From the IMG/VR virus record IMGVR_UViG_3300028920_000031: a stretch of DNA of 64,000 nucleotides; one strand, given 5' to 3'. The stretch is from an uncultured virus (IMG/VR IMGVR_UViG_3300028920_000031) (taxonomy: Duplodnaviria; Heunggongvirae; Uroviricota; Caudoviricetes). A program made the translations under genes and the position numbers. Shown one piece after another: positions 3,156 to 59,836 of the stretch; within the stretch, counting starts at the first letter, position 1, and each line of letters starts with the position of its first letter. The notes under the pieces are model-generated. The model did not search any database. It was given only the letters and a program-made list of their open reading frames with translations, and had not been told where the DNA came from.

Positions 3156-4154
3156 ATGCAAAGATACAAAAACAGGGAAACCGGGCAGGTGTTCGCGTGC
3201 AGGCAGTGGAAAGGCGACGAGAAAGACCCCCATGCCGCCCATTCGGCGTCGGATCCCGAAAAAAAGTGCCCGAAATGCGGCCGTTCCCAAAAAAGCCATG
3301 GCATCTTCGGAGATGGCACGTCGAAAATGACGGCGTGTCCCGGCAGCTGGATTGTTTTTCCCGAAACCGGCGTTTCTCCTCCCGCAGTCTACGGTGAAAC
3401 CATGTTCAGCAAGGCATTCGAGAAGCTACCCGAGCCGCCCTCCGAAAAACAGGACCTGCAGGTAACGGCCGACAACTATGTGCAGCATGTATTGCGGACG
3501 GCCCACAACGACATCGAAGCTGTCAGGGAAAGACTGCAGGATCCGAGAGTACTCGACCTCCTACACGCCTCGATCGGCATGGGCACCGAAGCCGGGGAGA
3601 TGCTCGACGTCTTGAAGAAACACATCTGGTATGGCAAGCCGATCGACTGGGCGAACGTCGTCGAGGAGCTGGGAGATATTTCTTGGTATGTCGGGCTTGG
3701 CTGCCATGCGGCGCAGACCCCCCTGCAGGACGCCTTGGAAAAGAACGTCAGGAAGCTCGACCTCAGATACAAGAAAGGCTTTTCGGAAACCCGGGCAAGG
3801 GACAGGGACCTCGAAGCCGAAAGAGCCATTTTCGAATATTTTGCCACGTCCGACCAGAAAGCGGACGGATACGGCACATGCGACCACTGCGGGCTGGCGC
3901 GGCCGAGAGCCGTGCTTGAAGACGACGGAAACGGACTTCGCATCTGCGACCGCTGTCTCGAAAATCTGGCGATGTGCCCGACCTGCAACGGGCAAGGGCA
4001 CTATATCAAGAGCTCGGACAGCACCGGGACTTTCGGCGGCACCTGCGAATACTGTAGCGGTAGCGGCTGGGTAAAGAAGGAGTATCTCTGCGAGCACGGG
4101 GAATTCGAGGAAATCTGTCCGTTTTGCCATCCCGAAGAGGAGGAGAAAAGCTGA
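3156..4154 (+). CDS. MazG-like NTP pyrophosphohydrolase fused to zinc fingers
   Basis: LLHASIGMGTEAGEMLDVLKK...EELGDISWY; CPTCNGQG/CEYCSGSG repeats. Confidence 0.8.
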   Translation: MQRYKNRETGQVFACRQWKGDEKDPHAAHSASDPEKKCPKCGRSQKSHGIFGDGTSKMTACPGSWIVFPETGVSPPAVYGETMFSKAFEKLPEPPSEKQDLQVTADNYVQHVLRTAHNDIEAVRERLQDPRVLDLLHASIGMGTEAGEMLDVLKKHIWYGKPIDWANVVEELGDISWYVGLGCHAAQTPLQDALEKNVRKLDLRYKKGFSETRARDRDLEAERAIFEYFATSDQKADGYGTCDHCGLARPRAVLEDDGNGLRICDRCLENLAMCPTCNGQGHYIKSSDSTGTFGGTCEYCSGSGWVKKEYLCEHGEFEEICPFCHPEEEEKS

Positions 4155-4178: not shown

Positions 4179-5072
4179 ATGTTCCATATGTCCTACGTCT
4201 ACAATGTCAAGGAAATCATGCCCGTCCGATGCCGGGCGAATTTCGATATCCAAGTTCTCAACGACCGGGGCGAACAGCTCTGGCGCGGCAGCGGTACGAT
4301 AGAGAGGGACCGGCAATCAGGGGGCAAGCCCGAATTCGTCGGCGATGCCCACATTCAGCATCTCTACGTCACAAAAATGCGGCAGAAAGCACCGGGTACA
4401 TATTTCAGCATTGAATTCCGCGAGCCGACGCTCAGGAAGGCAAAGAACAGGATGATCAGGGAAATCGGGACCGCGCTGATTCCGCTCGTGGAACGGCAAG
4501 AAGGGCAGGACATCGAATTCTCGGAGCCTTGGGCGCCGGCACCGCGGGCCTTGGAACCCCCCAATCCCGACTCGATTCGCAACCGGGGCGTCGAGTTTCC
4601 GCCGTATCCTCCCGGCATGGGGCCTCCCGAGGAGGACAAAACCGAAAAATCGCGACGCCTCAACACTCTTGGCCCGGGCAACGCAAGGGCCGACGATCCA
4701 GGACCCGACTGGGACAGCCCCTACAATACCGGCAATCCGCAGGTGAGGGGCGAACCGGCAGTCGGGTGGCTGCCCAGAGCCGGATTCGTGGGACAGACAA
4801 TCCTGACTCCGAAAATGGCCGAAGCCAAAATGGGAGGCAGCGTCGAAGAGGATGCCAAGAAGCTCTATCGGCGAGTCCTCGAGGAAACCGACGACTGGAA
4901 TTCCTGGGGCGTCTACGAGCTCTTCCCCGACGCCAACAGCCATCAGGCTCTTGCCGCCGCCAAATACGTTGTCGGACAGATGCGGGAAAACTACGCCGAA
5001 CAATACGAACCCGAATGGTGGTGGCTGATAGAAGAACGCCTGCGCCCGATGGTGCTTGCGAACCTTATCTGA
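4179..5072 (+). CDS. Hypothetical protein
   Basis: 297-aa ORF with GGAG RBS. Confidence 0.7.
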   Translation: MFHMSYVYNVKEIMPVRCRANFDIQVLNDRGEQLWRGSGTIERDRQSGGKPEFVGDAHIQHLYVTKMRQKAPGTYFSIEFREPTLRKAKNRMIREIGTALIPLVERQEGQDIEFSEPWAPAPRALEPPNPDSIRNRGVEFPPYPPGMGPPEEDKTEKSRRLNTLGPGNARADDPGPDWDSPYNTGNPQVRGEPAVGWLPRAGFVGQTILTPKMAEAKMGGSVEEDAKKLYRRVLEETDDWNSWGVYELFPDANSHQALAAAKYVVGQMRENYAEQYEPEWWWLIEERLRPMVLANLI

Positions 5073-5116
5073 ATTTCGTCTCGTTGTACAATGTCAGTAC
5101 AAAGGAGCAGGTCAAC

Positions 5117-5362
5117 ATGGTATTCGAGCTTCCAAGCGGAATTCGTATAGCATCCGTGGTTCTCGAGCAAGAGCCCGATTCGTGCGAAACCCCCAATGAC
5201 ATCCAAGAACTTTCCATTCGCATGGACGACGCCGGCGAAGGACATTTCTGCCGACTGTCCACCGAAAGATGGAGCGTTGACGATCCGGACGCCTTCGCCA
5301 AAATGCTTCGACAGCTGGCGGCTCAATGCGACGCTTGGACAGAAGAAGCCTTGAACAGGTGA
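5117..5362 (+). CDS. Hypothetical protein
   Basis: AAGGAG RBS, MVFELPSG start. Confidence 0.65.
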   Translation: MVFELPSGIRIASVVLEQEPDSCETPNDIQELSIRMDDAGEGHFCRLSTERWSVDDPDAFAKMLRQLAAQCDAWTEEALNR

Positions 5363-5366
5363 AACG

Positions 5367-6161
5367 ATGGGAAAGCCTGAGTCCGATCTCTGCGAGTGGT
5401 TCATGGCGGCGGCGCGCGAAAAGGGCTGGACGTGCTATCCCGAGACTTCGGACTGGGACATCCTGCTCGTTCGCGACGACATTCAGGTCGGCGTCCAAGC
5501 CAAGATGACTCCGAACGTCAAATTGCTGAAACAGTGTCTCCCAGACAGGCTGAGATGGAGCACGTCGATGCTGGCACATCCCGAAAAGTTCAGAGGTTAT
5601 GTCACGGGCCCGAACTTCAGAGTGGCTCTCGTCCCTCTGAAGGGGAAGGCGAAAAGCCTCGAAAATTTCGAGTTCGTGGCCAAGACGCTGGGCATCTGGG
5701 TCGTCGAAAAAAACAATTCGAAATCAAAAAAAATGAACGAGCGATACGATTTCGGCATCGGCATCCTCGAAGACCAGAAGCATATGGACGCCTATGACTG
5801 GAAGCCGATGAAAAAGTGCTGGATCCCCGATGTCGTGCCCGACGTCGAGGCCGGCGTCAAGTCCCCCGTGTCCCTGACCCGCTGGAAACAGTCCGCCATG
5901 CGGCTAATTGCGAGGGCTCGAGTCCGCGGATATGTCACGTCCAAGGACGCCAAGGAACTCGGCGTGAGCATGGAACGGTTCGTCGCAAGGTTTAGCGCGA
6001 ACCATGAGCCCTGGATGAAATTTGCGGGCAAACAAGGCAGGTTCCACAAGTACGCCCTGCAGGGCGAAGATCCCGAGAGGCCCGACAAGCAGATGCCGGA
6101 GGCATACAAGTTTTTCTTGGAAGAGGCCAGAAAAGAAAGCGAGGAAATCGATGGCGTTTAG
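5367..6161 (+). CDS. Hypothetical phage protein (possible PD-(D/E)xK-like N-terminus)
   Basis: YPETSDWDILLVR...GVQAK. Confidence 0.6.
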   Translation: MGKPESDLCEWFMAAAREKGWTCYPETSDWDILLVRDDIQVGVQAKMTPNVKLLKQCLPDRLRWSTSMLAHPEKFRGYVTGPNFRVALVPLKGKAKSLENFEFVAKTLGIWVVEKNNSKSKKMNERYDFGIGILEDQKHMDAYDWKPMKKCWIPDVVPDVEAGVKSPVSLTRWKQSAMRLIARARVRGYVTSKDAKELGVSMERFVARFSANHEPWMKFAGKQGRFHKYALQGEDPERPDKQMPEAYKFFLEEARKESEEIDGV

Positions 6162-7455
6162 GGAAAAAGTCGAGAAGAAAAAGGCCAAAGTAGGCGTGGT
6201 CGGCCTCGGATATGTGGGACTTCCTCTCCTGCTCGAATTCGCCGAAGCCGGATTCGTCGTTTTCGGCATTGACATTGACCTGAACAAGGCGGTGAGCCTT
6301 CAGGACGGGAAATCGTATATCAGGCACATATCCTCTGAAAAGATCAGCAGGCTGATCAGGGAAAATGACAAAGCGACCACCTCGGTTGATTTCGCATTCG
6401 CAAATGCCTGTGACGCACTGCTGATCTGTGTCCCGACCCCGCTGTCTGATCACAGGGAGCCGGAGCTTTCATACATCAGGTCGACTGCGGAACTGATCGG
6501 GCCCCATATGCGGGAAGGACAGCTCATCTGCCTTGAGTCTACGACATACCCCGGCACGACTGAAGACGTCCTGATTCCCATCTTGGAAGAAAAATCCGGT
6601 CTGAAAGCCGGACTTGACTTCATGGTCGCCTATTCGCCGGAAAGGGAAGATCCCAACAACAAGAAATATTCGACGTCCACGATTCCGAAGGTTGTCGGCG
6701 GCATCGACGGGGCCTCGCTCGACTGCGCCAGAGCGCTCTACGACGCCGTGATCTGCGAAACTGTTCCTGTGTCGTCGTGCAGGGCTGCAGAGGCGACGAA
6801 GCTGATGGAAAACATCTTCAGGAGCGTAAACATCGCGCTGGTCAACGAGATGAAGACCGTGCTCGCCGCAATGGACATCGACGTCTGGGAAGTCATCGAG
6901 GCCGCCAAGACGAAGCCCTTCGGCTATATGCCGTTCTATCCAGGCCCTGGATTAGGCGGGCACTGCATCCCCATCGACCCCTTCTACCTGACCTGGAAAG
7001 CCCGCGAGTACGGCCTGAGCACGAGATTCATCGAGCTCGCCGGCGAAATCAATACCGCGATGCCGCGCCAGGTGGCCCTCCAGACGATGCTCGCCGCCAA
7101 CGCCAAGGGCATGACGATCCGCGGCGCCAAGGTCCTGATTGTGGGCCTTGCATACAAGAAGAACACCGACGACGACCGCGAAAGCCCGGCGTACGCCCTC
7201 TGGGAACAGTTCGAACAGGTCGGAGCCGAAGTCTCCTACTACGACCCGCTCTGTCCAGAAGTCAGGCACTCGCGGCAGAACGCTGATCTCTGCGGGAGAA
7301 AATCCGTGTCCTATGCAGATGTCAGGGATTTCGACGTCGCAGTGATCTCGACGGCCCACGACTGCGTCGACCACGACGTCATCGCGGAACTGGTCCCCTT
7401 GGTAATCGACACCCGCAACGCGTGCAAGCTCGCGCACAACGTAGTGAAGGCATAG
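6151..7455 (+). CDS. Nucleotide-sugar dehydrogenase (UDP-glucose/GDP-mannose dehydrogenase family, WbpA/WecC-like)
   Basis: GVVGLGYVG, ICVPTP, LESTTYPGTT, AYSPER, GPGLGGHCIPIDP, GLAYKKNTDDDRESP. Confidence 0.95.
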   Translation: MAFREKVEKKKAKVGVVGLGYVGLPLLLEFAEAGFVVFGIDIDLNKAVSLQDGKSYIRHISSEKISRLIRENDKATTSVDFAFANACDALLICVPTPLSDHREPELSYIRSTAELIGPHMREGQLICLESTTYPGTTEDVLIPILEEKSGLKAGLDFMVAYSPEREDPNNKKYSTSTIPKVVGGIDGASLDCARALYDAVICETVPVSSCRAAEATKLMENIFRSVNIALVNEMKTVLAAMDIDVWEVIEAAKTKPFGYMPFYPGPGLGGHCIPIDPFYLTWKAREYGLSTRFIELAGEINTAMPRQVALQTMLAANAKGMTIRGAKVLIVGLAYKKNTDDDRESPAYALWEQFEQVGAEVSYYDPLCPEVRHSRQNADLCGRKSVSYADVRDFDVAVISTAHDCVDHDVIAELVPLVIDTRNACKLAHNVVKA

Positions 7456-7457
7456 CG

Positions 7458-7868
7458 ATGACAGGATTTTCCCAGGAATGGTCGCTCAGGGCCGCCTCCG
7501 GCAACGAAAAGGATCTTCACGGATCCGAGGAAGAAGGCTGGATCGGCGTCGATCTCGACGGAACGCTAGCCGAATATCACGGCTGGAAAGGACCGGAACA
7601 CATCGGCAAGGCAATCCCGAAAATGGTCGACCGGGTTAAGCAATGGCTCGAAGAGGGCAAGGACGTCAGGATCATGACGGCCCGGGTCGCCCCCGGCAAG
7701 GGAGATGCGGAAAAATACCGCGAACGCATAGAGGAATGGGTCGAAAAGACGTTCGGCCGCGAACTGCCCGTCACGCACGAGAAGGATCGCGAAATGCTCG
7801 AGCTCTGGGACGATCGCGTGGTTCAAGTCGTTCCGAACACCGGCGAGCGAGCGGACGGCAAAGACTAA
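7458..7868 (+). CDS. Small HAD-family phosphatase (phage PNKP/nucleotidase-like)
   Basis: IGVDLDGTL, IMTAR, K, LWDDR motifs I-IV. Confidence 0.8.
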   Translation: MTGFSQEWSLRAASGNEKDLHGSEEEGWIGVDLDGTLAEYHGWKGPEHIGKAIPKMVDRVKQWLEEGKDVRIMTARVAPGKGDAEKYRERIEEWVEKTFGRELPVTHEKDREMLELWDDRVVQVVPNTGERADGKD

Positions 7869-7889: not shown

Positions 7890-8498
7890 TCAGCCGAGCT
7901 TTGAAAGCGACTTGACGTCGTCCGAAGAGATCCTGCCCTTGGCGATCCATTCCTTGACGTCTGAAAACGAGAACTGCACCATGCGCTCGCCGGCATAGTC
8001 GGCATAGCGGAGCTTCATCGTCTTGGGGTCGTGCCTTGGCGCCCAGTCGGGATCGGCTTCCATCTCCACGAGCTTCTCGGGGTCGCCGCAGGCATACAGC
8101 GTCTTGATCGGCGGATAAGCCACCGCAGTTATGTTCGCCCGTACTTCTTCTTCGCCCGCCGGGGTCCAAAAAGCCGAATATCCCTCGGTTCCGGCCCACA
8201 TGTCGTCGGCCGGCAATGCCGTGACCTCGCTGTCAAATTCGTCGACTGCGGCGACTGCCGACGCGACCTTCCACAGAATTTCTCCCACTTCCTTGGCAGG
8301 CGGTGGAGCGTCGTCTTCGCGCTCCATGAAGGGGGACAGCTCGACATCGATCAGGGCGTCGATACCGCCCACGTCGCCCGTCCTGGCCACCTCCCTGAGA
8401 CACTTCTGCAGTTCGGCGGCCTGTTCCAGCCTTTCGGACACGGAAATGTCTTTTCCAATAGTGAGCCTGATCGCTGTCATGATAATCTCCTTTGGCAT
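7890..8498 (-). CDS. Hypothetical protein
   Basis: 202-aa ORF. Confidence 0.6.
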   Translation of the reverse strand: MPKEIIMTAIRLTIGKDISVSERLEQAAELQKCLREVARTGDVGGIDALIDVELSPFMEREDDAPPPAKEVGEILWKVASAVAAVDEFDSEVTALPADDMWAGTEGYSAFWTPAGEEEVRANITAVAYPPIKTLYACGDPEKLVEMEADPDWAPRHDPKTMKLRYADYAGERMVQFSFSDVKEWIAKGRISSDDVKSLSKLG

Positions 8499-10019: not shown

Positions 10020-10949
10020 ATGAAGATCACTGGAAACGACCTCCTGGACAAAAACGCCTGCGCCGCAGGCGTCGCCTTCTATCTCCACAACCGCCTGCAG
10101 GATGTCGACTGGGATGTCGTCAAGAAAATCGAACTGACTGCCGGCGCGCCTCGAGAATATGCCGAGTGGCTGTGCAGCAAGTTCGGCTTGACCATGAACA
10201 TCAAAACTGCCGACGGACGCGAGGCAAGCTATGAAAACGGCCACCAGACGCACTCCCGCGACTCGAACGGCCTCGAGACATGGCGGGAATACGACGCCGA
10301 CGGCAAGTTGACTCACTTCCGCAATTCGGACGGCTACGAGGAATGGCGGGAATACGACGCCGACGGCAACCAGACGCATTTCCGCGACTCGGACGGCTCC
10401 GAGACATGGCGGGAATACGACGCCGACGGCCACCAGACGCATTTCCGCGACTCGGACGGCTACGAGTGGTGGCGGGAATACGACGCCGACGGCAAGTTGA
10501 CTCACTTCCGCAATTCGGACGGCTACGAGGAATGGCGGGAATACGACGCCGACGGCAACCAGACGCATTTCCGCGACTCGAACGGCTACGAGGAATGGCG
10601 GGAATACGACGCCGACGGCCATGAGACGCACTCCTGTGCCTCGAACGGCTACGAGACATGGCAGGAATACGATGCCGACGGCAATCAGACGCACTACCGC
10701 AATTCGGACGGCTACGAGGAATGGCGGGAATACGACGCCGACGGCAACCAGACGCACTTCCGCAAATCGAACGACTACGAGGAATGGCGGAGATACGACG
10801 CCGATGGCAATCAGACGCACTACCGCAATTCGGACGGCTACGAACGGTGGCGGGAATACGACGGCGGAATCCTGATCTCGGCAACCGTCAAGGGATACGA
10901 GCCCGAAACCCTGGACGATTCCGTCCTGGAGCAGCTGGGAATAAAATAA
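10020..10949 (+). CDS. Tandem-repeat (YD/MORN-like) protein
   Basis: About 10 copies of 21-aa WREYDADG(N/K/H)QTHFRxSxGYEE. Confidence 0.85.
   Translation: MKITGNDLLDKNACAAGVAFYLHNRLQDVDWDVVKKIELTAGAPREYAEWLCSKFGLTMNIKTADGREASYENGHQTHSRDSNGLETWREYDADGKLTHFRNSDGYEEWREYDADGNQTHFRDSDGSETWREYDADGHQTHFRDSDGYEWWREYDADGKLTHFRNSDGYEEWREYDADGNQTHFRDSNGYEEWREYDADGHETHSCASNGYETWQEYDADGNQTHYRNSDGYEEWREYDADGNQTHFRKSNDYEEWRRYDADGNQTHYRNSDGYERWREYDGGILISATVKGYEPETLDDSVLEQLGIK
10230..10863 (+). repeat. Coding tandem repeat, 63-bp unit x ~10
   Basis: TGGCGGGAATACGAC-like starts every 63 bp from 10281 to 10848. Confidence 0.95.
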
Positions 10950-18454: not shown

Positions 18455-19168
18455 TCAATACCTCATGTCCGGATTCGACGAGTCGAATCTCTGCTCCAGC
18501 GGAATCGGATTCCCGGCATCGTCATAGGTAGCGGGCGCCGCAGACTTGATCTGCCAAGGCTCGAAAACCAGGATTTCCTCGGCCCAGGACTCGATCGGGC
18601 CCGAGGTATCGGCATCCTCCGATGTCACCACCACCGCATCCTGCCCCCGGCTCCCCGCCAACTCCGAAAGATAGGGGTCCGTAATCCCGACGTAGCGGTA
18701 GACCAGCGGATTCCGGATCATCAGGTACACCGGATATACCTCGCCCTTCAGCGTCTCGTCGAGCTCCTCGCGATTCTGCCGCCAGCGTTTCTCGATCTCC
18801 CTTAACTCCTGTTCCTGCTCGTCCGTGATCTTGCCGCGGCGGTGGTCGATGCTGACGTACATGATGCTAGTGCCGAACTCCTCGGCCTTCCGCTCCCATT
18901 CCTGCCAGAGCCTCTCGTCCTCCTCGTCGAGCTCCTTTACCGCCTGCACGCGATAGTTCTCGGCAATCCCCCGTGAGGGCGTGAAGTAGACGCCCGACTT
19001 CCCCCAGTCGCTCGTCCGTATCGTTCCCAGCAGCGACGGATCGAAGAACGTCAGGCCCTCTGCCGCGCTCCCGTGGTAGACCGGGCCGACATTGTAGCCC
19101 GCGGCCTTTGCCGCGGCCTTCACCTCCGCAGGGGTCGGGCCCTTCGCATACCTCTCCATCCAGCTCAT
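18455..19168 (-). CDS. Tagged ART-PolyVal-like ADP-ribosyltransferase
   Basis: MSWMERYA; PVYHGS, GVYFT..AENY, VYPVYLMIRNPL, EILVFEPWQIKS, DDAGNPIPLEQRF..DMRY tail. Confidence 0.8.
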   Translation of the reverse strand: MSWMERYAKGPTPAEVKAAAKAAGYNVGPVYHGSAAEGLTFFDPSLLGTIRTSDWGKSGVYFTPSRGIAENYRVQAVKELDEEDERLWQEWERKAEEFGTSIMYVSIDHRRGKITDEQEQELREIEKRWRQNREELDETLKGEVYPVYLMIRNPLVYRYVGITDPYLSELAGSRGQDAVVVTSEDADTSGPIESWAEEILVFEPWQIKSAAPATYDDAGNPIPLEQRFDSSNPDMRY

Positions 19169-19737
19169 GCGCGCCTCCCGGCTCCAGGGGCGGCTCCCAC
19201 GACCTCGATCTCGGGAAGTGGCTCTTCCCCCGACCACTCCGGCACCGACTCGACAGTTCCGCCGGGAAAGAGGAGTTTCTGCCTCACCAGTTGCCTCTTG
19301 AGGCACTCCAGGTCGCCTTCGAGAAGACAGTGTATCGAGCCGTCCGACGCATATTCCGCCGGGGAAAGAAACGCCCTCACTCTGCGACGGGAAGCCCAGT
19401 CCAGCAGCGAGCCGGCCAGAAGCTTTCTGAAACCCTCGGGGAACGCCGCCTCGACAGCGAGGACGACTTCGGAAATTGGCTCTCCGCGGTCAAACGCCCT
19501 CTTGGCCGACGCCAAGGCGAAGGTCCCTCCCGCGGTCTCCTCCTCGAAGGACGAAAGGCGGTTCAGCGCCTCCGAAAGCCAGCGGACGAAACCCCTGTCC
19601 CCGACCAGGCGGTGGACGGCGTGCGAGATCTCGACGGTCTCGTAGGAACCGGGGTCCGCGGCCATGCTCCACAGAAGGTCCCGCGCCGGAGGCTCGAACC
19701 TCAGGGGATCCGCGGCATATCTCGTCATCCAGTTCAT
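19165..19737 (-). CDS. Tagged (MNWMTRYA) hypothetical protein
   Basis: ATGA-coupled in the operon. Confidence 0.7.
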   Translation of the reverse strand: MNWMTRYAADPLRFEPPARDLLWSMAADPGSYETVEISHAVHRLVGDRGFVRWLSEALNRLSSFEEETAGGTFALASAKRAFDRGEPISEVVLAVEAAFPEGFRKLLAGSLLDWASRRRVRAFLSPAEYASDGSIHCLLEGDLECLKRQLVRQKLLFPGGTVESVPEWSGEEPLPEIEVVGAAPGAGRRA

Positions 19738-20989: not shown

Positions 20990-21706
20990 ATGATAGCGGA
21001 TTTCCCGAAAATCTATTGTCCGTTCATACGGAAAATCTTCCGGGTAGACGAGGACGACTGGCGGGAGCGCGGCAGTCGGCTGCAGCTCAGATCCCCGGAG
21101 GCATACCTTGCCGTGGACGCCGTCAATCCCGGATATGAATGGGTATTCGACCACCCCGACACCTTCGCGGTCGAAAAGCTGGATGGCTCCAACGTCAAGA
21201 TCCTCGCCGAAAACGGGAGGATTGCCGCGGCCCGCAACAGGACGAACGACATCGACCTCCTTAAAATCGGGTCCGGAAAGATGTTCCTCGCAGAAGGAAT
21301 CCTTCTCGCCGCCGCCAAGGGCAGGCTGCAGCCCGACGGAATTCAGGCGGGAGAAGTCGTCGGACCCAAGCTCCAGGGAAACCCGTATCATCTGCTCGTG
21401 CACGAATGGTACCCGTTCGACCTCGCCGCCGAGCAGCTGAGATACAAGTCGTTCCACAAGCACGACAGGACCTTCGACAACTGGAGCTCGTGGTTCAGGG
21501 ATTATCTCTTCTCCCTGTTCTACAGGAAAAACCGCCCCAGGCTCCCGGACGCCCCTGAAAGCGTAATGGCGGAAGGAGTCGTCTTCTACAACCTCGCCAG
21601 AAAGGCCGAAGGCAAGACTTGGATGGCGAAGCTGAGACGGGACATGTTCGACTGGTACTACGAGGGAATCAAGATCCCGGAATACGACAAGGGCGCTAGC
21701 GCGTGA
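20990..21706 (+). CDS. RNA ligase (nucleotidyltransferase family)
   Basis: Motif I EKLDGSN, GEVVGPKLQGNP, EGVVF, MAKLR. Confidence 0.8.
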   Translation: MIADFPKIYCPFIRKIFRVDEDDWRERGSRLQLRSPEAYLAVDAVNPGYEWVFDHPDTFAVEKLDGSNVKILAENGRIAAARNRTNDIDLLKIGSGKMFLAEGILLAAAKGRLQPDGIQAGEVVGPKLQGNPYHLLVHEWYPFDLAAEQLRYKSFHKHDRTFDNWSSWFRDYLFSLFYRKNRPRLPDAPESVMAEGVVFYNLARKAEGKTWMAKLRRDMFDWYYEGIKIPEYDKGASA

Positions 21707-24466: not shown

Positions 24467-25168
24467 TTACGCCTGCTGTTCGCGGGGTTCCTCGCGGGAT
24501 TCCTCGCGGTCGGCTTCGGCGATCTCTCCGCCTTCGACTTCGGCGAGAACTTCGTATTCCTCGCCGTTGTGGCGGAAGGCTACGAGCGACTCCAGCTTGT
24601 AGACGCGGGGGACAGTCAGAACGTCAACTTCCTTTTCTGTGACGTTGCCGTTGTCGTCAGTCACCTTAATCGTGAGCGTTTTCACTGTGACCTTGGACTC
24701 TTGCAGACCTTCAATGTCGTCCTTGGCGATGGGGTTGCCGTCAAGGGTGTAGCGGACGGTTGGCCTCAGTTTCTTGTCGATGCTCGGCTTGCCCGATTTC
24801 GGATAGTAGACGTTGATATACCGTGCGTCCGTTTCCCCGTGACGGATAACGGCACCTTTGAGGCGTTCGCCGCATCCGTTCCACAGACCTTCAATGCGTG
24901 TCGGCACGACCTCGATTTGCTCGGAGGTGAGGTCAAAACCTTCGTTCTCGCGGTACTGCTTGAACGCCTTGTTTTCGATGATGGTTTTGAAAGTGACCTT
25001 CTCGCCGCAGAATATCCGTGCCGTGGTGTGTTTGACAACGCGACCTTGGTGCGGGTTGCTCTTGCCTTTGCTGAGGCGGGGCACCGTGGTGGTGGTGATG
25101 CCGACAAATGCACAGCCTTGGATGCTGGCGAAGATTTCTTCGGCTTGCTGGCGGGTGATGGTCTGCAT
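24467..25168 (-). CDS. Hypothetical protein (duplication unit 1)
   Basis: Promoter plus AAAGGAG RBS; C-term EVEGGEI shared with 26482-27243. Confidence 0.8.
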   Translation of the reverse strand: MQTITRQQAEEIFASIQGCAFVGITTTTVPRLSKGKSNPHQGRVVKHTTARIFCGEKVTFKTIIENKAFKQYRENEGFDLTSEQIEVVPTRIEGLWNGCGERLKGAVIRHGETDARYINVYYPKSGKPSIDKKLRPTVRYTLDGNPIAKDDIEGLQESKVTVKTLTIKVTDDNGNVTEKEVDVLTVPRVYKLESLVAFRHNGEEYEVLAEVEGGEIAEADREESREEPREQQA

Positions 25169-42407: not shown

Positions 42408-42660
42408 GATTTTCACCTCGTTTCTTTCGGCGGGATTCTCCCGCCTTCTACCCGTACTGTAGCACATATCTTCGAGATGTCAAGCCGCTTCGGGAATTCG
42501 AGACCTTGGCCGGCGGATCCGGGGGAGCTGGCCGACGGGAGACCCGTGCACACTCCAACAGGGGGGGTAGGCGTGGGCGCCGCTCCCCGGACGCGGCCCG
42601 GGCAGCAGGAAGGCGGCCTCCTTGCGAAGGCCGCCTTCCGCGCCGGGGAGGCTGGGGCCG

Positions 42661-42951
42661 CTACAGCGGAACGACAGACTCGACCTCGTAATCGGCATCG
42701 TATTCGGCAGGAAACTCGACGTCGGCCGCCTTCTCGAGAGCCAGCGCCTCGGCCTCGCTCTCGCTCGCCGCCCTGACCCTGACCGTGGCCGACCTCGTGG
42801 CCGTGCGAAGGATCTCGACCTCGTACTCGGAGACCTGAAGCTCCTTCACGCAGTCGGTCTCGATGTCGACGTCGAAGTGGATCCAGACATAGCCGCGCTT
42901 CCTGGCCTCCTTCATGAGATCGAGAAGCTCGGGATCGATGCCGCTCGTCAC
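42661..42951 (-). CDS. Hypothetical protein
   Basis: GGAGG RBS. Confidence 0.6.
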   Translation of the reverse strand: MTSGIDPELLDLMKEARKRGYVWIHFDVDIETDCVKELQVSEYEVEILRTATRSATVRVRAASESEAEALALEKAADVEFPAEYDADYEVESVVPL

Positions 42952-42972
42952 GACCTCCTCGACGACGACCTC

Positions 42973-43134
42973 CTAGGGCAGCTCGCCTTCGGGCACCCAG
43001 ACGAGACAGGCCAGCTCGTTCTTCATTTTGCAGCATGTCAGCTTCTCAAGCTCGGCGAAGTCGGTGTTCGGCAGGGAGTCGGTTCCGACAAACCAGGTTC
43101 TTTCCGTGTTGTCCTTGATCAGTTCGGGGTTCAT
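42973..43134 (-). CDS. Small hypothetical protein
   Basis: ATGA-coupled. Confidence 0.5.
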   Translation of the reverse strand: MNPELIKDNTERTWFVGTDSLPNTDFAELEKLTCCKMKNELACLVWVPEGELP

Positions 43135-43853
43135 TTCAGCTCCTCCAGTCTTTCGGGCAGCATCGTTGCCACCCAGTTCCAGTATCCGCGAGTCGTCTTG
43201 TCGGCCATGATGGCCCGCTGCCACTCCGACTTCGGGGCCAGCGGATGCTCGCCGCCGTGGCGCCGCTCGAGCTCCTCGGCGTCGGCCCAGCCGTCGGACA
43301 TGTCCCAGGTCTTGCCGCAGTCGTGGCATTCCCACTCGAAATCCTGCAAGTGGGCGAAGTTGCGCGATCCGCAGTACGCGCATTCAGTGGGCGGCTCGCT
43401 CTCGGCCAGTTCCTCGGGCGTGAGCACCCGCTCCTTTTCCACGAACTTCCAGCACTGGACATAGGCTCCGTCCTCTCCGATGCTTACCTCGCAGTCGGGA
43501 TCGAACTCCAGGTCGCCGTCCAGGCGGCAGACATCCTTCGTCCAGTCGCGGTACCGCTCCTCGAGCTTGGCCTCGGGGCCGGGCTCGGCCGTCGCGGCAA
43601 GCTTCCTGGCTTCCTCGAGCTCGTCTTCCTCGAGAACGGCTTCCAGATAGCCGGCGTCGCCCTCGGAAACGCCGAAGTTGACGGTGCCGACGTAGGTCTT
43701 GCCGTCCTCGCCGAGGAAGATGATCTCTCCCATGATGTCCTGCGCATACGCCTTGTTCATCGCGCGGCCGGCGGCATCCATCAGGGCGTCGAGATCCTCG
43801 CAGTAGCCCGATACGCCGTGGTGTCCGTCCCGCAGCCATTTCAGAATCTTCAT
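43131..43853 (-). CDS. Hypothetical protein with zinc ribbon
   Basis: Promoter cassette; CAYC...CHDC. Confidence 0.75.
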   Translation of the reverse strand: MKILKWLRDGHHGVSGYCEDLDALMDAAGRAMNKAYAQDIMGEIIFLGEDGKTYVGTVNFGVSEGDAGYLEAVLEEDELEEARKLAATAEPGPEAKLEERYRDWTKDVCRLDGDLEFDPDCEVSIGEDGAYVQCWKFVEKERVLTPEELAESEPPTECAYCGSRNFAHLQDFEWECHDCGKTWDMSDGWADAEELERRHGGEHPLAPKSEWQRAIMADKTTRGYWNWVATMLPERLEELK

Positions 43854-43999
43854 GATGCTTCTCCTTTGTTGGGGTTCACCACGAATATAGCACAGATCTT
43901 TTGGATGTCAAGCCAAACGGAAAAAAAATGGGGAGCGGCAAGAACCCCTTCAGCCGCTCCCCGCTTCCCGGGGCCAAAGGAAAACTCCGGGAAGTGCAG

Positions 44000-44076
44000 T
44001 GGCGCGCCGGGCGGGATTCGAACCCGCGACACGGGAGGTTAAAGCTCCCTGCTCTAGCCAGCTAAACTACCGGCGC
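44000..44076 (-). tRNA. tRNA-Sup, anticodon UUA (ochre suppressor), encoded CCA
   Basis: GCGCCGG TA GTTT AGCTGGCTA GAGC A GGGAG CTTTAAC CTCCC GTGTC GCGGG TTCGAAT CCCGC CCGGCGC G CCA: full cloverleaf. Confidence 0.9.
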
Positions 44077-44115
44077 ATGCCGTATTATGGATCTGAAGAT
44101 CTCTCCTTCCAGTTC

Positions 44116-45801
44116 TCATCTCGAGATTTCCTCTGCCGGCCGCGCGGCCGCCGGCTCTTCCTCGGCGCACACTCCAAGCATGCTGGCGTCGGGAAGCTCG
44201 CTGGTTCTGGGCACGGGACATACTGCAGTCGGTCTCGTGGTCCGCCTGGCGGGACTGGCCAAGGCAGCCACGCGCCTGACCTGCTCGGCCAGCTCGGGAT
44301 CCTCGATCCGGGTCTCGGCCAGCCTATCCAGCAGTTCGGCCACTTCGTGCGGCACCGGCAGCGGAGCCGGACTGAGCCACTCCGGAAAGCTCAAGTCGCC
44401 GGCCACTTGGCATCGCGGCTCCTCGCCGACGAGCTTGGCCTCCACCCAGCTCCTGGCTGTCTCGCCACAAGACCTGATTCCTCCGGTGCTGAACACCGCG
44501 GACCGGCCTGCGGCCAGATTCTCGCGAGCCAGCTCGCACAGGGACTCCCAGTCTGTCTCGCCAGGTCTGCCGAATGCAGCCGCCGCGTTGTAGATCCCGG
44601 GAGAGCGCTCCACGAGCAGGAAAAGCGCGGCGGCCCAGCCGCTCAAGGCGCGCACTTCAAGAGGGACGAGCACTTCGCCTTCGAGGCCGGCCAAGTCCGC
44701 GGGCGGCATCCGCCCCGGGGCGAATTCAGGCTTTATCCGCTCAATCCACTGCAGCGCCTCGGGTTCGATGTCCTGGTCGGCCGCCCATTCCAGGAACTCC
44801 GCAGGGACCAACACCTTTTTCGGGGCCGAAAACTCGATGACGGTGACGTCGTCTCCCCAGCCCGCCCCGAGCCTGAGACGGACCACCGGGAAGAAGCCGT
44901 GATCGGCATAGACGGCCGCGGCAGCCAGCACGTCGGCCAGCATTGCGCGCTCGCTGGATCCGGGCATCTCGAGACGCTCGCCGTCGCAGTTCACGCTCGC
45001 TCCTCGCAACGCGTATTCGCCAGCTACGGGCTCGATACGGGGAGCGTCCATCTGCGGCTGCGCATTCAGTGTGGAGCCGGACAGTTCGCTGCTCAAGTCG
45101 ACTAGCGGCCGCAACAGTTCGGCTTCCTCCGGATGTTCGGCTCCGAACTGGCGGAGGCGGAGTGTGAAATCGCTTGGAGTGATCCCCAAAATTGTTCTGT
45201 TCAGCAATTCGTCTCCTTTTGCGAAAATCAGATGAACATCGACCCGACTCTCGTTGTCCATGGTCTCAAGATGCGTCCGAACCAAATCGCGCAGGTCCCG
45301 GGAATCTGATGTGGGAGTCGACGACGTGCAGTTGTATTCAGAATCAGTTCGCAAGTCTACGGAAAAGCCCTGAAGTCTTTCGCCGGCCGATGCCCTCTCC
45401 CGGAGATATTCCATGGTGCGAGGAATCGCGGCAGCGAACCGTTGACGTTCATCGAGCTCGTCAAACCACACCCGATCTGCAACAAGCCCCTCGAACAGCT
45501 GGGATCTCGTCGAAAAATTCAGTCGCAGACCGCGTACCAGGCCGGCAGCAGCGTCGAGACGAAGCTCGCACCTGGGATCCAGTAGTTCGGCGCGCACGCC
45601 AAAATAGCTCGTCTTCAAGGTCTCCAACAGTATTGCATCAAAAGGCCCGCGAACAAGTCGCTGTTCTTGATGGCCGCTTATGGCGTCGCGCGTGTACAGC
45701 TCCCAGTTCGGCGACGCGGGGCGGGCGACGGCCAAGCAGACTTCGCCGCGAAGAAGCAGTTCGAATAACATCGGCTCAGGCATCGACAAGTTTCTCTGCA
45801 T
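44116..45801 (-). CDS. Hypothetical protein
   Basis: 561-aa ORF, no recognised motif. Confidence 0.65.
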   Translation of the reverse strand: MQRNLSMPEPMLFELLLRGEVCLAVARPASPNWELYTRDAISGHQEQRLVRGPFDAILLETLKTSYFGVRAELLDPRCELRLDAAAGLVRGLRLNFSTRSQLFEGLVADRVWFDELDERQRFAAAIPRTMEYLRERASAGERLQGFSVDLRTDSEYNCTSSTPTSDSRDLRDLVRTHLETMDNESRVDVHLIFAKGDELLNRTILGITPSDFTLRLRQFGAEHPEEAELLRPLVDLSSELSGSTLNAQPQMDAPRIEPVAGEYALRGASVNCDGERLEMPGSSERAMLADVLAAAAVYADHGFFPVVRLRLGAGWGDDVTVIEFSAPKKVLVPAEFLEWAADQDIEPEALQWIERIKPEFAPGRMPPADLAGLEGEVLVPLEVRALSGWAAALFLLVERSPGIYNAAAAFGRPGETDWESLCELARENLAAGRSAVFSTGGIRSCGETARSWVEAKLVGEEPRCQVAGDLSFPEWLSPAPLPVPHEVAELLDRLAETRIEDPELAEQVRRVAALASPARRTTRPTAVCPVPRTSELPDASMLGVCAEEEPAAARPAEEISR

Positions 45802-46009
45802 CCGGGTATTCTCGCAACAGCACTTCCCAGCTGGGATACGGATCCTTGTTCACGTTGTCTCCGCGGCCGCGAACTTTCATCGGCCTCAAGATGTAGAGGC
45901 CACCTCCTCCCAGTTGCGGAGAACTGACCACGTCATGCGGGATCCCGCGGATGCTCACGGTGCCGACGACGGCCGACTTGACTCTGGCTCCTGCCTTTCC
46001 GCTTGCCAT
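45776..46009 (-). CDS. Small hypothetical protein
   Basis: AAGGAG RBS. Confidence 0.55.
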   Translation of the reverse strand: MASGKAGARVKSAVVGTVSIRGIPHDVVSSPQLGGGGLYILRPMKVRGRGDNVNKDPYPSWEVLLREYPDAEKLVDA

Positions 46010-56448: not shown

Positions 56449-58353
56449 TCAAGCTCTCTCCCAGTTTCTGAAGCAGTACATTTCCATCCACTGCCCCTTG
56501 ATGCCCTGGTATGGCTGGTAGAATAGGAGTTCGGGGTCGAGGGTCGCGAAGGGGAAGTCTCCGAACTCGTAGTCGACGTCCCTCCAGCCGAACCTGTCTA
56601 CCTGCTTGACGGTGACCGCCACCAGCGCCTCGGGGTTGTCCCTGAGGGCAGCTTCGGTCGCGAGGACGTGCGAGGAGGTCAGGGTGCCGTTGTAGTCGAG
56701 ATGCACGGCATTGAACTCCGGGAGCTCGATATCCCGCTGGCCGAGCAGCAGGTCGTCTATGTCTGCCTTCACCACCGGGATGACGCCTCCGACCTCTCCC
56801 CGCTGGAACAGCCGCTTGAAGAATGCCCTGAGCCTTTTTGCCTTCTTCCTCTCGACGCCCAGGCAGTCCGGGTAGTCGAAGTCGAATCCGTTCTCGATCA
56901 GGGCGTGGATCTCCCTGCCGTTTCCCGGGAGGCTGAGGAATCTGAGGTCGAAGTAGCCGAGATCCTGGAGCTCTTCCTGGAACATCTCGCAGGCTTCGAC
57001 CTTGCCGGCGGTCTCGTAGGGCCAGAGCTTCTTCGTCCAGATGTCGAAGAATTTTGTCACGAAGAACTTAGAAGGTTGTTTTTCGCGTCCGGCACAGCAT
57101 GCGCATCTCGTTCCTAATTTGCCTCTCGCGCGGACTGTAGCCCACCATTCGTGTCCGCACGTGTGGCATCGCCACATGACCTTTTTACAGCTTCCCGAGA
57201 CGTAATCTGACGGTTTTTTCTGATTGTCGGGATGCCAGTCTTTAACCAGCTCGGGAAAATCAAGGGAGAAATTCCGCGTATCGGTTGCTATCCTGCCGCA
57301 GCAGGAAATGCAACGGTGATACTTGCCATATTTCGTGTCGTGGCAGATTCTTGCTCCAGCAGTGCCCGTCCATTCATACCCGCATTTATGGCATCTCCAT
57401 TTTACCTTCTTGCTGCTTTTCGGCGTAATGTCCGCGGGGGAGAAGTCGTTGTCGGGGTGCCAGTCCTTGACCAGTTCCGGGTGCGAACGGGCGAAATTGT
57501 TGTCAGGCGTTGCGACTTTTCCCGCGCAGGCCGGACAACTGCCGCTTTTGCTTCCCGACGCATTTGTTCTCGAGTTCGGAGATGTTTCCCAGGCATGTCC
57601 GCACTTATGGCATTTCCACTTGACAAGGGCGGTGCTTCCGTATGTGATTTCTTTCGGGTCTACCTCGTTCTCGGGGGCCCAGTCCTTCATTATTTCCGGG
57701 TGTGTTTCACAGATGTTATTGAATTCTGTGGCGACACGCCCGGAACAGCTTGAACAGCAATATGTGTAGTAGGGAGCGGCGATCCATTCGTAGGTGCAGA
57801 CGGGACATTTCCATTTGGCCTTTTGGTTGCTTTTCCTGGTGACCTCGTACGGGCTTTTTTTGTTGTCGGGATGCCAGAGTTTCGCCAGTTCAGGGTCGCT
57901 TACCGCCAAGTTGTTGGTGGGGGTGGCGACTCTGCCTGAGCATGCCGGGCAGCCATTTCCGCGGACCCTGTCTTTCGGAGCGGCTCGCCATGCATGCTGG
58001 CATATGCGACACTTCCACTTTACCCGCCTGCCGCTCCCGGGGGTTATTTGCGTCGCCTTTATCCTGTTGTCGGGATGCCATTCTTCTGCAAGGTACGGCT
58101 CGGCCACCTTCAGATTGAAGGAATTGCTGGCGACCCTCCCGATACATGCGGCACATCCGCTCCCCTTCCAGCTCCTGTTTGAAACGCTCGTTTTCCATTC
58201 GTGTCCCTTGTCGCATCTCCACCACACTCTTTTACCGGAGTACGGCGTCACGTCCGTCGGCTTCAGGTCTCCGTTCTTCGTCGGATGCCATTCCGCGGCG
58301 ACCTCGGGGAATTCGGTCTGGAGGTTGTATTCTGGCGTGGCTCTGCGTCCCAT
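56449..58353 (-). CDS. Multi zinc-ribbon (DUF4379-like) repeat protein with putative methyltransferase-like C-terminal domain
   Basis: About 6 repeats of P.L..EWHP.N...W.C..C.HEW...CP.C; C-term FLSLPG..LGVE..DI..FNAVHLDYNG. Confidence 0.8.
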   Translation of the reverse strand: MGRRATPEYNLQTEFPEVAAEWHPTKNGDLKPTDVTPYSGKRVWWRCDKGHEWKTSVSNRSWKGSGCAACIGRVASNSFNLKVAEPYLAEEWHPDNRIKATQITPGSGRRVKWKCRICQHAWRAAPKDRVRGNGCPACSGRVATPTNNLAVSDPELAKLWHPDNKKSPYEVTRKSNQKAKWKCPVCTYEWIAAPYYTYCCSSCSGRVATEFNNICETHPEIMKDWAPENEVDPKEITYGSTALVKWKCHKCGHAWETSPNSRTNASGSKSGSCPACAGKVATPDNNFARSHPELVKDWHPDNDFSPADITPKSSKKVKWRCHKCGYEWTGTAGARICHDTKYGKYHRCISCCGRIATDTRNFSLDFPELVKDWHPDNQKKPSDYVSGSCKKVMWRCHTCGHEWWATVRARGKLGTRCACCAGREKQPSKFFVTKFFDIWTKKLWPYETAGKVEACEMFQEELQDLGYFDLRFLSLPGNGREIHALIENGFDFDYPDCLGVERKKAKRLRAFFKRLFQRGEVGGVIPVVKADIDDLLLGQRDIELPEFNAVHLDYNGTLTSSHVLATEAALRDNPEALVAVTVKQVDRFGWRDVDYEFGDFPFATLDPELLFYQPYQGIKGQWMEMYCFRNWERA

Positions 58354-58961
58354 TATCTCTCCTTTTTCTTCCCCTCGTCGACGGGCGCCCCTTTCTCGCA
58401 GTCTTCGGTTTTTCTAGAGTACTGTTCGTCGATCTGCTTCAATGTCTTTTTCAGCCACTCCGGCATACGCCATTGTCCGTGATATGTCGTATCGAGTCCG
58501 CACCCCGGACATTTGACCCTAACTGTCTCGCTCGCCTCTCCTCTGTAGACTTTCCGCTTCCACTTGCCGTTGACGCGTGTATAGTGCCGGTCTACGTGTT
58601 GCCGTTCTTCTCTCTCGATCTTTGCCCGGGAGTGGTCACACGCGGGGAATTGCCTATCTCCATAGCCCGGTTCTTCTTTCCAGCCTACAGGTATGTAGTA
58701 GCAGGGCACGGACTCCTGTTGCCCCCACTCGACCCTGAGTTCGGCCGCGTTCTTTTTTGGCGGATAGTTGGCGATATCGAGATGGCAGACGAGAAGTGTT
58801 CCGTTTTGGTGTTCTACCCGGATCATCACGCATCCGTTCTTTGGTGCGATCGGCTCTTTGACGACGATGCCTGGTTTTGAAACGAGACCTGCTCCAGCGG
58901 ATTTGAGGAGCAGTACGACCGCCTGTCCGACCTTGAGTTTCTTGGCGTCTCTCTTTTTCAT
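58353..58961 (-). CDS. Hypothetical protein
   Basis: Promoter plus GGAGG; TAATG coupling. Confidence 0.7.
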   Translation of the reverse strand: MKKRDAKKLKVGQAVVLLLKSAGAGLVSKPGIVVKEPIAPKNGCVMIRVEHQNGTLLVCHLDIANYPPKKNAAELRVEWGQQESVPCYYIPVGWKEEPGYGDRQFPACDHSRAKIEREERQHVDRHYTRVNGKWKRKVYRGEASETVRVKCPGCGLDTTYHGQWRMPEWLKKTLKQIDEQYSRKTEDCEKGAPVDEGKKKER

Positions 58962-59015
58962 GCCTCCCTTCACTCGCCCTACGATAGCACGCCTTGTTCC
59001 GATGTCAAGTCGATG

Positions 59016-59086: not shown

Positions 59087-59836
59087 TCATGCGTTTTCGA
59101 GCATTTCCCTGACTTTGTCGAGGTGTGCCCGGTCCTGCGGCTTGCCGCAGGTGTTCAGCTTCACGAACAGGCGCAGTATTTGTTCGCGCGTCGGGTTCTC
59201 GATCTCGGCAACCGAAACGATGTAGTTGTCGAAATGGCTTTGATCGCGGACCGTCATCTGGTGATAGGTCAGCCCTCGATACTCGAAACGGCCCTCGTAG
59301 AACTCGCACAAGGCGCTTAGGCGCTGTTTGCCGTCGACAATCTCGTACATCACGTCCTCGCTGTAGCCGCGATGCGCGAAGGTGAATTTGCCGATGTCGA
59401 CGTGCGTATAGATCGAGTGGATCAGGGCCACCTTGTCTTCGTGGTCCCAGACCAGTTCGCGCTGGTAGTCCGGCTCCATGTCGACGCCGAAGTGATAGTA
59501 CATGCCCAGGACGCCGCGAATGTCGCGTTGGCTGAAGCGCAAAAGGAGATCGTCGCGGTAGCTGAGCACCTTGGTGTCTTTCGGGATTGTCGGGCTCACG
59601 TCGCACCAGGCGACATAGACTTCGCCTTTGTCGACGAGAGTCTTGCCGCGCTTTTCCTGCTCGCTCATGCGGTGCACCTTCAGCACACGGCCCTCTTCGA
59701 GCACTTCAAGGACGCGCGTGTGCTGCCAGCCTCCATAGCGCACCGCCTCTCCCGGTTTGTATAGGATTGTCGGTTCGGGGATGTGTTCGTCCATCGTCGC
59801 ACTGTATTCGGGGGTTTTCGCCTTTTTGCGTTTCAT
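59087..59836 (-). CDS. DUF262 (GmrSD N-terminal/ParB-like) domain protein
   Basis: PDYQRELVW..LIHSI..EIVDGKQRL..FVKLN. Confidence 0.85.
   Translation of the reverse strand: MKRKKAKTPEYSATMDEHIPEPTILYKPGEAVRYGGWQHTRVLEVLEEGRVLKVHRMSEQEKRGKTLVDKGEVYVAWCDVSPTIPKDTKVLSYRDDLLLRFSQRDIRGVLGMYYHFGVDMEPDYQRELVWDHEDKVALIHSIYTHVDIGKFTFAHRGYSEDVMYEIVDGKQRLSALCEFYEGRFEYRGLTYHQMTVRDQSHFDNYIVSVAEIENPTREQILRLFVKLNTCGKPQDRAHLDKVREMLENA

Follow-up and report, generated by a model that had tools for sequence, protein, structure and literature searches.

Classical ochre suppressors are laboratory mutants, each one step away from a sense tRNA, in which the identity of the parent is kept; in Escherichia coli, supG and supL are derived from tRNA-Lys, supB from tRNA-Gln and supC from tRNA-Tyr. 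The psu suppressors of T4, which include a UAG suppressor, are of the same kind. Suppressor tRNAs have further been described in the genomes of uncultivated and cultivated phages. A tRNA that reads TAA (TTG to TTA) occurs in a crAss-like phage in which no reassignment is detected, and another crAss-like genome gained a suppressor and began to accumulate in-frame TAG codons in conserved genes; the same work puts forward a model of suppressor pre-emergence followed by the accumulation of in-frame stops (Yutin et al, 2021, PMC7886860). Among jumbo phages, the cultivated Klebsiella phage phiKp24 (MW394391), which uses the standard code, is reported to encode a tRNA-Sup-TTA of 'arginine identity' (PMC8386662), the Bacillus megaphage G a tRNA Sup:UUA (PMC12484599), and the Xanthomonas phage XacN1 two CUA suppressors, for which in-silico read-through of all 18 amber stops by the authors revealed no target (PMC5852040). 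In the available part of a 2026 survey of jumbo phages, suppressors are treated only alongside recoding (PMC13037316). Orphan suppressors therefore recur in jumbo phages with a standard code (phiKp24, G, XacN1), and the available parts of these reports give no purpose for any of them.

The locus described here lies in a 64-kb stretch of phage DNA (the window, meaning the whole of the 64,000 nt analysed) from a contig of 162,907 nt, at least 99 kb of which lie outside it. Orphan suppressors in standard-code phages are already published, and the UUA tRNA of the window adds another. As in the crAss-like cases described, an orphan UUA tRNA is paired with one in-frame TAG that relatives lack. The crAss-like suppressor is, as described, a one-step tRNA-Gln mutant from a single genome of a Bacteroidota phage, whereas the window tRNA is of arginine type, two steps from UCU, has lost A20, is old enough to recur with compensatory changes in a distantly related phage, and belongs to a jumbo-phage-like genome of 59% GC. 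The resemblance to phiKp24 consists of a UUA-anticodon tRNA with a link to arginine in a standard-code jumbo phage; no client gene is reported in the available part of the phiKp24 description, whereas the window holds a candidate. The Sup-TTA of phiKp24 was rejected as a homologue, as it is 85 nt long, scores 26.8 bits against the Rfam model (below the cut-off) and aligns poorly with the window tRNA. With G and XacN1 the window shares an orphan suppressor in a standard-code jumbo phage; the suppressors of these two phages are described within large tRNA sets, whereas that of the window is the only tRNA in 64 kb and, unlike theirs, comes with a candidate target in the form of a TAG-interrupted domain. 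From its UUA anticodon, the tRNA would be expected to behave as the classical ochre suppressors do, with reading of UAA, weaker reading of UAG, low-efficiency competition with release factors and rescue of nonsense mutants. Unlike them, it is natural and conserved, and the identity marks of its parent (Arg) are gone.

The locus offers comparative evidence of selection on the UUA anticodon (a syntenic, conserved gene with compensatory changes), a natural contrast of tRNA presence and absence between sibling phages, and a specific nearby gene, changed from TGG to TAG, whose rescue by the tRNA is conceivable. If the link to this gene is true, an 'orphan' suppressor would have an identifiable client, served by a UUA tRNA working by wobble on UAG, and code change by the route 'suppressor first, stops accumulate later' would have a direct natural example; if it fails, the locus is one more well-documented orphan suppressor. 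An arginine-type body devoid of the arginine identity marks also provides a modest but testable instance of a switch in tRNA identity.

The UUA tRNA and its amino-acid identity

The sole tRNA called by ARAGORN in the 64-kb window is a 77-nt gene at 44000–44076 on the minus strand, typed as 'tRNA-Stop' with anticodon tta (ochre type); the anticodon occupies positions 35–37 of the gene, at 44040–44042(-). The Rfam model RF00005 matches it over its full length with 59.7 bits (gathering threshold 29, E = 2.2e-10). An earlier note, made from the letters alone, had described an intact minus-strand cloverleaf with a UUA anticodon, and the ARAGORN call, the Rfam score and the sequence itself agree with that description. 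The acceptor stem has 7 bp (GCGCCGG/CCGGCGC), the D arm a 9-nt loop with C at position 20, and the anticodon stem GGGAG/CTCCC closes a canonical 7-nt loop, C-U-UUA-A-C, with U33 and A37; a 5-nt variable loop, a consensus T arm, G73 and an encoded CCA complete the molecule. The thermodynamic fold by itself does not stand out (z = -1.75), a common situation with tRNAs; the case for the gene is carried by the covariance model and the comparative data.

The sequence was compared with a Logan contig of 42,049 nt from X1, the run from which the window probably stems; at a depth of about 66, this contig shows 0 differences from the window over 42600–45900. It derives from the same data as the window and thus provides depth and a re-assembly, not an independent confirmation. 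At such a depth, the absence of differences argues against an assembly slip at the tRNA, the error in the anticodon bases that the earlier note had considered. Near-identical flanks occur on fragmentary contigs of runs X2/X3 and X4, from two other studies. One low-depth contig of run X2, from another study, bears a variant allele of the tRNA with six changes among the differences listed: a G:C to C:G swap at pair 28:44, two GU pairs turned into Watson-Crick pairs, a 1-nt deletion in the D loop and one change in the variable loop. Among these listed differences, none affects the anticodon.

The body of the tRNA points to arginine. Its top full-length phage matches are tRNA-Arg(UCU) genes, those of Xoo-sp13 (77.9%), G, PA5oct and D479, and the tRNA-Lys(UUU) genes of VCPH and 7t3 are also among the top matches. 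The VCPH tRNA-Lys(UUU) is 76.6% identical and has the same 5' arm of the anticodon stem, but G73, C38 and the 3' half of the window tRNA are arginine-like. Bacterial tRNAs that share this 3' half (variable loop, T arm, 3' acceptor strand, G73 and CCA) are tRNA-Arg(CCG) in four cases out of four. In the joint alignment, position 20 is A in all five Arg tRNAs, C in the window and U in the homologous tRNA of a distant relative (locus L005, discussed below); position 35 is U in both UUA tRNAs, which also have a derived U11 in common. The Arg/Lys-like body with C20 read by the earlier note is thus borne out by the phage tRNA-Arg(UCU) and tRNA-Lys(UUU) matches, the tRNA-Arg(CCG) 3' half and the alignment. 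Judged by these comparisons, the body descends from an arginine-type tRNA and is most like phage tRNA-Arg(UCU).

Descent and charging are distinct matters. A20 and C35 are the main identity elements of ArgRS according to work in E. coli, U34 and U35 are identity marks for LysRS, and U35 and G73 for GlnRS. Since A20 and C35 are both lost, the window tRNA is not classed as an arginine acceptor, and its U34/U35 (LysRS) and U35/G73 (GlnRS) would make lysine or glutamine the likeliest residue carried under these identity rules. A suppressor of the supG/supL type has a tRNA-Lys body with A73 and lies one step from UUU.

Conservation and surroundings of the tRNA locus

The tRNA follows a gene of 561 aa (44116–45801(-)), which ends with TGA 39 nt before it. 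The promoter scan found no promoter-like site between the two, which are probably co-transcribed according to this layout. On the 3' side of the tRNA, two hairpins occupy 43921–43994(-) (fold -42.1 kcal/mol, z = -4.07; also found by the terminator scan); the second, at 43962–43930, is followed by a run of eight T (43928–43921) and resembles an intrinsic terminator at the end of the tRNA transcript. Next comes a sigma-70-like promoter of the downstream operon, TTGACA-16-TATATT at 43884–43911(-), with 11 of 12 consensus positions and a TG before the -10 box, and then a gene for a zinc-ribbon-like protein of 240 aa (CxxC...CxxC) at 43131–43853(-), which served as the synteny anchor.

Relatives of the tRNA were sought by an exact-pattern scan with the anticodon masked, which gave 0 matches in viral_contigs and 0 in metagenome_contigs; the 240-aa protein has no relative in viral_contigs, and tblastn of the 561-aa protein against phages returned no match. 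Related loci were fetched by means of the 240-aa neighbour protein and fall into two informative classes, represented by L005 on the one hand and by L003 and L004 on the other.

L005 is a distant relative. Its homologue of the 240-aa protein is 44% identical, and the 799-aa ORF that precedes its tRNA resembles the C-terminal part of the 561-aa protein (26% over 138 aa, E = 4e-8). It possesses a tRNA(tta) placed and oriented like that of the window, with an Rfam score of 70.3 bits, within a common order of upstream ORF, short spacer, tRNA, hairpin terminator, TTGACA promoter and next gene. Of the 77 positions, 15 differ between these tRNAs; 12 of the 15 lie in stems, and pairing is kept at every one of the 12: five of the 21 pairs are changed on both sides and two have switched between GU and Watson-Crick. 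Pairing holds in 100% of cells, as against 40–57% when the partners are slid; this covariation is based on two complete sequences and on one allele deduced from listed differences, and the two-sequence count was equalled in 16 of 500 shuffles, which makes a weak control. UUA, A37, C38, G73 and CCA are identical in both tRNAs. From these comparisons, the UUA tRNA is not a fresh accident and appears as a gene conserved under selection, its anticodon included. The two anticodon changes and the loss of A20, which are common to both copies, indicate an old and maintained state.

L003 and L004, by contrast with L005, are close siblings of the window (95%, 91% and 86% nucleotide identity over three blocks) in which no tRNA was found by ARAGORN, nor by cmscan at E <= 1. 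The window segment 44149–43981 (167 nt, with the tRNA inside) is replaced in them by 68 unrelated nucleotides, and the terminator, promoter and RBS downstream of it are retained. Since L005 has the tRNA, its loss in the lineage of L003 and L004 is the simpler reading. Absence from close siblings makes the tRNA an accessory gene, and a dispensable one: as judged from these genomes, the phage can live without it.

The terminator hairpin is present in L003, L004 and L005, with a covarying stem, and the TTGACA promoter is likewise kept in all three. The loop of this hairpin, TGAAGGGGTTC (43930–43962(-) in the window, about 3860–3895 in L005), is kept while the stem covaries between window and L005; in L003 (about 7890–7925) and L004 the loop sequence is TGAAAGGATTC. 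The loop motif CTGAAGGGGTTC has 10 matches in the window at up to 2 mismatches, as against 7.0 expected, with no excess over chance. A mere terminator would hardly be expected to keep its loop, which may correspond to a protein-binding or processing site. The promoter region (43884–43928(-)) has a second match about 6.2 kb away in the X1 contig, with 8 differences over 45 nt, which suggests a reused phage promoter element.

Variation at the locus extends to the upstream gene. The middle of the 561-aa protein is swapped between the window (45018–45590(-), 572 nt) and L003 (6091–6930, 839 nt): the sibling protein P0002 (637 aa) covers only 56% of the 561-aa query, and the flanks of the swap are 91–95% identical. 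On this comparison, the middle is a hypervariable cassette adjoining the tRNA indel. L003 (end 8861) and L004 (end 4413), which come from different samples, terminate at the same point, about 100 nt past a 252-aa gene, at which their resemblance to the window has already been lost; this common end point is probably a strain-variable breakpoint.

Stop codon usage and explanations for the tRNA

The window has a GC content of 54–64% along its length (59% for the contig) and is densely packed with small genes, 80 of which were called on codon bias. A profile scan of 78 window proteins against PHROGs and Pfam gave few matches, namely an AAA ATPase, a MazG-like protein, a UDP-glucose dehydrogenase, a radical SAM protein, YopX, GmrSD_N, HNH/treble-clef and ART-PolyVal. 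It returned no head, packaging, tail, other structural or lysis family. When a 710-aa protein of the window was compared with phages by tblastn, its distant matches were all in jumbo phages (RsoM2USA, Lu11, Atu_ph07, HRDY3 and Erwinia phages). We take the window to be a segment of a novel phage of jumbo or at least large size.

Of the 80 gene calls, 49 end in TGA, 22 in TAG and 9 in TAA. The in-frame extension past TAA scores as non-coding in eight of the nine TAA-ended genes, the ninth extension having only 9 codons. A six-frame scan of the 64 kb for coding-like segments joined by a single stop found 0 junctions for TAA, four for TAG and one for TGA; under a relaxed threshold TAA remained at 0, and the sole addition was a marginal TAG junction at 19643(+) (scores 2.8/2.8). 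The TAG junctions at 3150(+), 15054(+) and 31903(-) and the TGA junction at 4152(+) were rejected as read-through, as the genes on either side are adjacent genes of the usual kind, each provided with an RBS and a start; this leaves a single genuine case of TAG inside a coding segment. Non-coding extensions and the lack of TAA-split coding segments indicate that TAA is here a terminator and not a reassigned codon; neither many in-frame stops nor a stop lost as terminator is seen within the 64-kb window. TAA and TAG act as ordinary terminators in the window, where the code is standard. The earlier note had named TAA a genuine stop, and it does end the ORFs at 7422–7868(+), 24467–25168(-) and 58353–58973(-), the last with the TAATG coupling that the note had placed at 58353: its stop overlaps the ATG of the gene at 56449–58353. 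Its further view, that the whole genome is not recoded, holds for the window, where TAA ends nine of 80 genes and interrupts no coding segment; no late or structural gene is recognisable in it, and the stop-usage count likewise concerns the window only.

We propose, with moderate confidence, that the gene encodes a working nonsense-suppressor tRNA, in a phage whose code is otherwise standard. The tRNA would form the end of the upstream operon transcript, from which it would be processed (a search for RNA runs containing this stretch returned none), and it would be charged by a host synthetase other than ArgRS, most likely that for lysine or glutamine. Once charged, it would compete with release factors at UAA, and also at UAG by U:G wobble, with partial read-through as the outcome.

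It could be argued that the tRNA instead serves a reassignment of TAA and/or TAG confined to late or structural genes outside the window, in the manner of recoded phages such as the crAss-like and Lak phages. This is in line with the gene content, as 0 of 78 window proteins match head, packaging, tail or lysis PHROGs, the window seems to hold early and accessory genes only with at least 99 kb of contig beyond it, and one in-frame TAG is already present (client codon 54); moreover, cases in which only late genes are recoded have been documented (PMC7886860). We nevertheless judge it unlikely, given that TAA ends nine and TAG 22 of the 80 genes, with non-coding extensions and 0 TAA-split coding segments. 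No release factor or aminoacyl-tRNA synthetase was matched among the 78 window proteins (PHROGs and Pfam, window only), so that the search for such genes suggested by the earlier note came out negative there, and siblings at 86–95% nucleotide identity without the tRNA are hard to square with dependence on it. To our knowledge, reassignment of TAA has not been reported in phages.

The stop usage bears also on the idea that the tRNA acts mainly on the host, where read-through of UAA and UAG stops would degrade host proteins, including those of defence. Such a role has been suggested for crAss-like phages with a recoded genome (PMC7886860) and mentioned as possible in the case of phiKp24 (PMC8386662). 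As 49 of the 80 phage genes end in TGA, which a UUA tRNA does not read, the phage itself would be little affected; on the other hand, the 31 genes out of 80 that end in TAA or TAG mean that the phage is not insulated from the tRNA. We regard a mainly host-directed role as improbable, and it is in any case compatible with the suppressor explanation proposed above. Interference with host termination and a decoy against anticodon nucleases had both been named by the earlier note, and neither gained support from the analysis.

Decoding itself may be doubted, the tRNA being then a decoy or inhibitor of a host anticodon nuclease, or a tRNA-shaped regulatory RNA. The loss of both classical ArgRS marks means that it may be poorly charged, and the window has weak matches to an RNA ligase and to a polynucleotide-kinase PHROG, families that T4 uses in tRNA repair. 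The ligase match, at 20990–21706(+), reaches 25.5 bits with Pfam for a cut-off of 27; the kinase PHROG match, at 7422–7868(+), has E = 1.5e-7, and ncbifam gives for the same product nothing but a sub-threshold HAD-IIIA hydrolase (22.6 bits, cut-off 44.6). With the ligase below threshold and the kinase-like match read as a sub-threshold hydrolase, the two do not suffice for a tRNA-repair pair. A UUA that stays exact across 15 substitutions elsewhere, together with the 7-nt loop, U33, A37 and CCA, fits decoding better, and we know of no anticodon nuclease that targets a UUA loop; a non-decoding role thus appears very unlikely. Least credible of all is a functionless by-product, an Arg-type phage tRNA with a mutated anticodon carried neutrally, as the close siblings without tRNA and the 0 TAA-dependent genes in the window might suggest, for pairing is kept at 12 of 12 stem substitutions relative to L005 with the same anticodon while flanking proteins are only 26–44% identical, the X2 allele contains a compensated pair, and the two anticodon changes and the A20 loss are common to the window and L005 copies.

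A candidate client gene and other genes of the window

The one genuine in-frame TAG lies in a DUF5983-like gene of 157 codons at 42661–43134(-), 1 kb downstream of the tRNA and on the same strand. It starts at the ATG at 43134, which overlaps the preceding stop (ATGA), and runs for 53 codons, the TAG (codon 54, 42973–42975(-)) and then 103 codons in frame. When read through the TAG, the product has one Pfam DUF5983_C match over residues 32–109, corresponding to positions 4–81 of the 90 in the profile; the read-through protein reaches 28.7 bits for a cut-off of 27, as against 25.5 bits for the part after the TAG on its own and no match for the part before it. Two uninterrupted 157-aa relatives, P0009 (85%) and P0010 (83%), have Trp at codon 54, so that the TAG is one transition away from the TGG of the relatives. 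The DUF5983 domain is also continuous within protein P0006 of L005. A full HMMER search with the client protein retrieved 62 relatives at E <= 1e-3, and all 16 aligned homologues are continuous across the TAG site, which lies in a variable linker. The AlphaFold model built on the client alignment has a single alpha/beta domain across the site (pLDDT 82–92 over residues 1–95), with the TAG at the start of helix 51–64. No PDB fold match was found at E <= 0.001 (best 0.15), and ncbifam gave no match for the client protein or for the flanking proteins.

Signs of decay after the TAG were sought in the form of a second stop, a frameshift or a branch longer than those of the relatives, and none was present: the client branch downstream of the TAG measures 0.053 substitutions per site, as against 0.073 and 0.121 in the relatives. 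The TAG allele occurs in two studies, with 0 differences in the X1 contig and in an X4 contig that covers 42936–43130; these two define its scope, as no contig of X2 or X3 lies over 42600–43380. A GTG at 42951 is a possible restart for the second half of the gene, and it is preceded by GAGGAG at a distance of only 3 nt. A tie between the TGG allele and the tRNA-less lineage was considered and abandoned, as L003 and L004 diverge after the 252-aa gene and end before the client gene. No in-frame stop occurs in L003 or in the 6.8 kb of L005, which has the tRNA, and the in-frame stops of locus L008 were dismissed as read-through, being ordinary gene junctions.

With 0 TAA-split coding segments in the 64-kb window, the sole candidate client carries UAG and not the cognate UAA. 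UUA tRNAs are reported to read UAA and also UAG through U:G wobble (PMC10553269). We hypothesise that the client gene is rescued by the UUA tRNA, the two forming a natural suppressor/nonsense pair; the link is circumstantial and we rate it clearly below an even chance. Read-through of the codon-54 TAG into the full 157-aa DUF5983-like protein would be the most speculative step of the mechanism, and the case would then follow the path 'suppressor first, in-frame stops later' proposed for code change in phages. A single interrupted gene among about 80 might also have acquired its nonsense mutation recently and independently of the tRNA, being a gene that the phage can spare. The conditional read-through suggested by the earlier note has hence found one circumstantial candidate, at UAG, and no UAA-interrupted gene in the window. 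At the evolutionary level, it can be surmised, tentatively and with more doubt than belief, that an old Arg-derived tRNA switched its anticodon (from UCU-like to UUA) and its aminoacylation identity, was kept by a clade of high-GC jumbo phages, and now permits, or is required for, the expression of a UAG client, as a first step of code change.

The client gene has other particular features. The 240-aa zinc-ribbon protein (43131–43853) and the DUF5983-like protein (42661–43134) are fused in L005 into P0006 (328 aa, 4732–5718), and the distant homologues P0012, P0022 and P0025 have the same RHGG...YW.WV tail; the fusion and the common tail make the zinc-ribbon and DUF5983 parts look like shuffled modules of one system.

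Elsewhere in the window, a 634-aa protein (56449–58353(-)) contains six DUF4379 treble-clef zinc-finger repeats (Pfam E = 3.3e-85) and matches HNH-endonuclease PHROGs; its gene is translationally coupled, by the TAATG mentioned above, to an upstream gene of 206 aa. An ART-PolyVal ADP-ribosyltransferase domain is encoded at 18455–19306(-) (Pfam, 44.9 bits) and a GmrSD_N domain protein at 59087–59836(-) (Pfam, 64.3 bits), both of which, by their domains, are possible host-takeover or anti-defence genes. Finally, a 309-aa protein at 10020–10949(+), with RHS-repeat and EF-hand-like matches, has a coding score per codon above that of every other gene called in the window.
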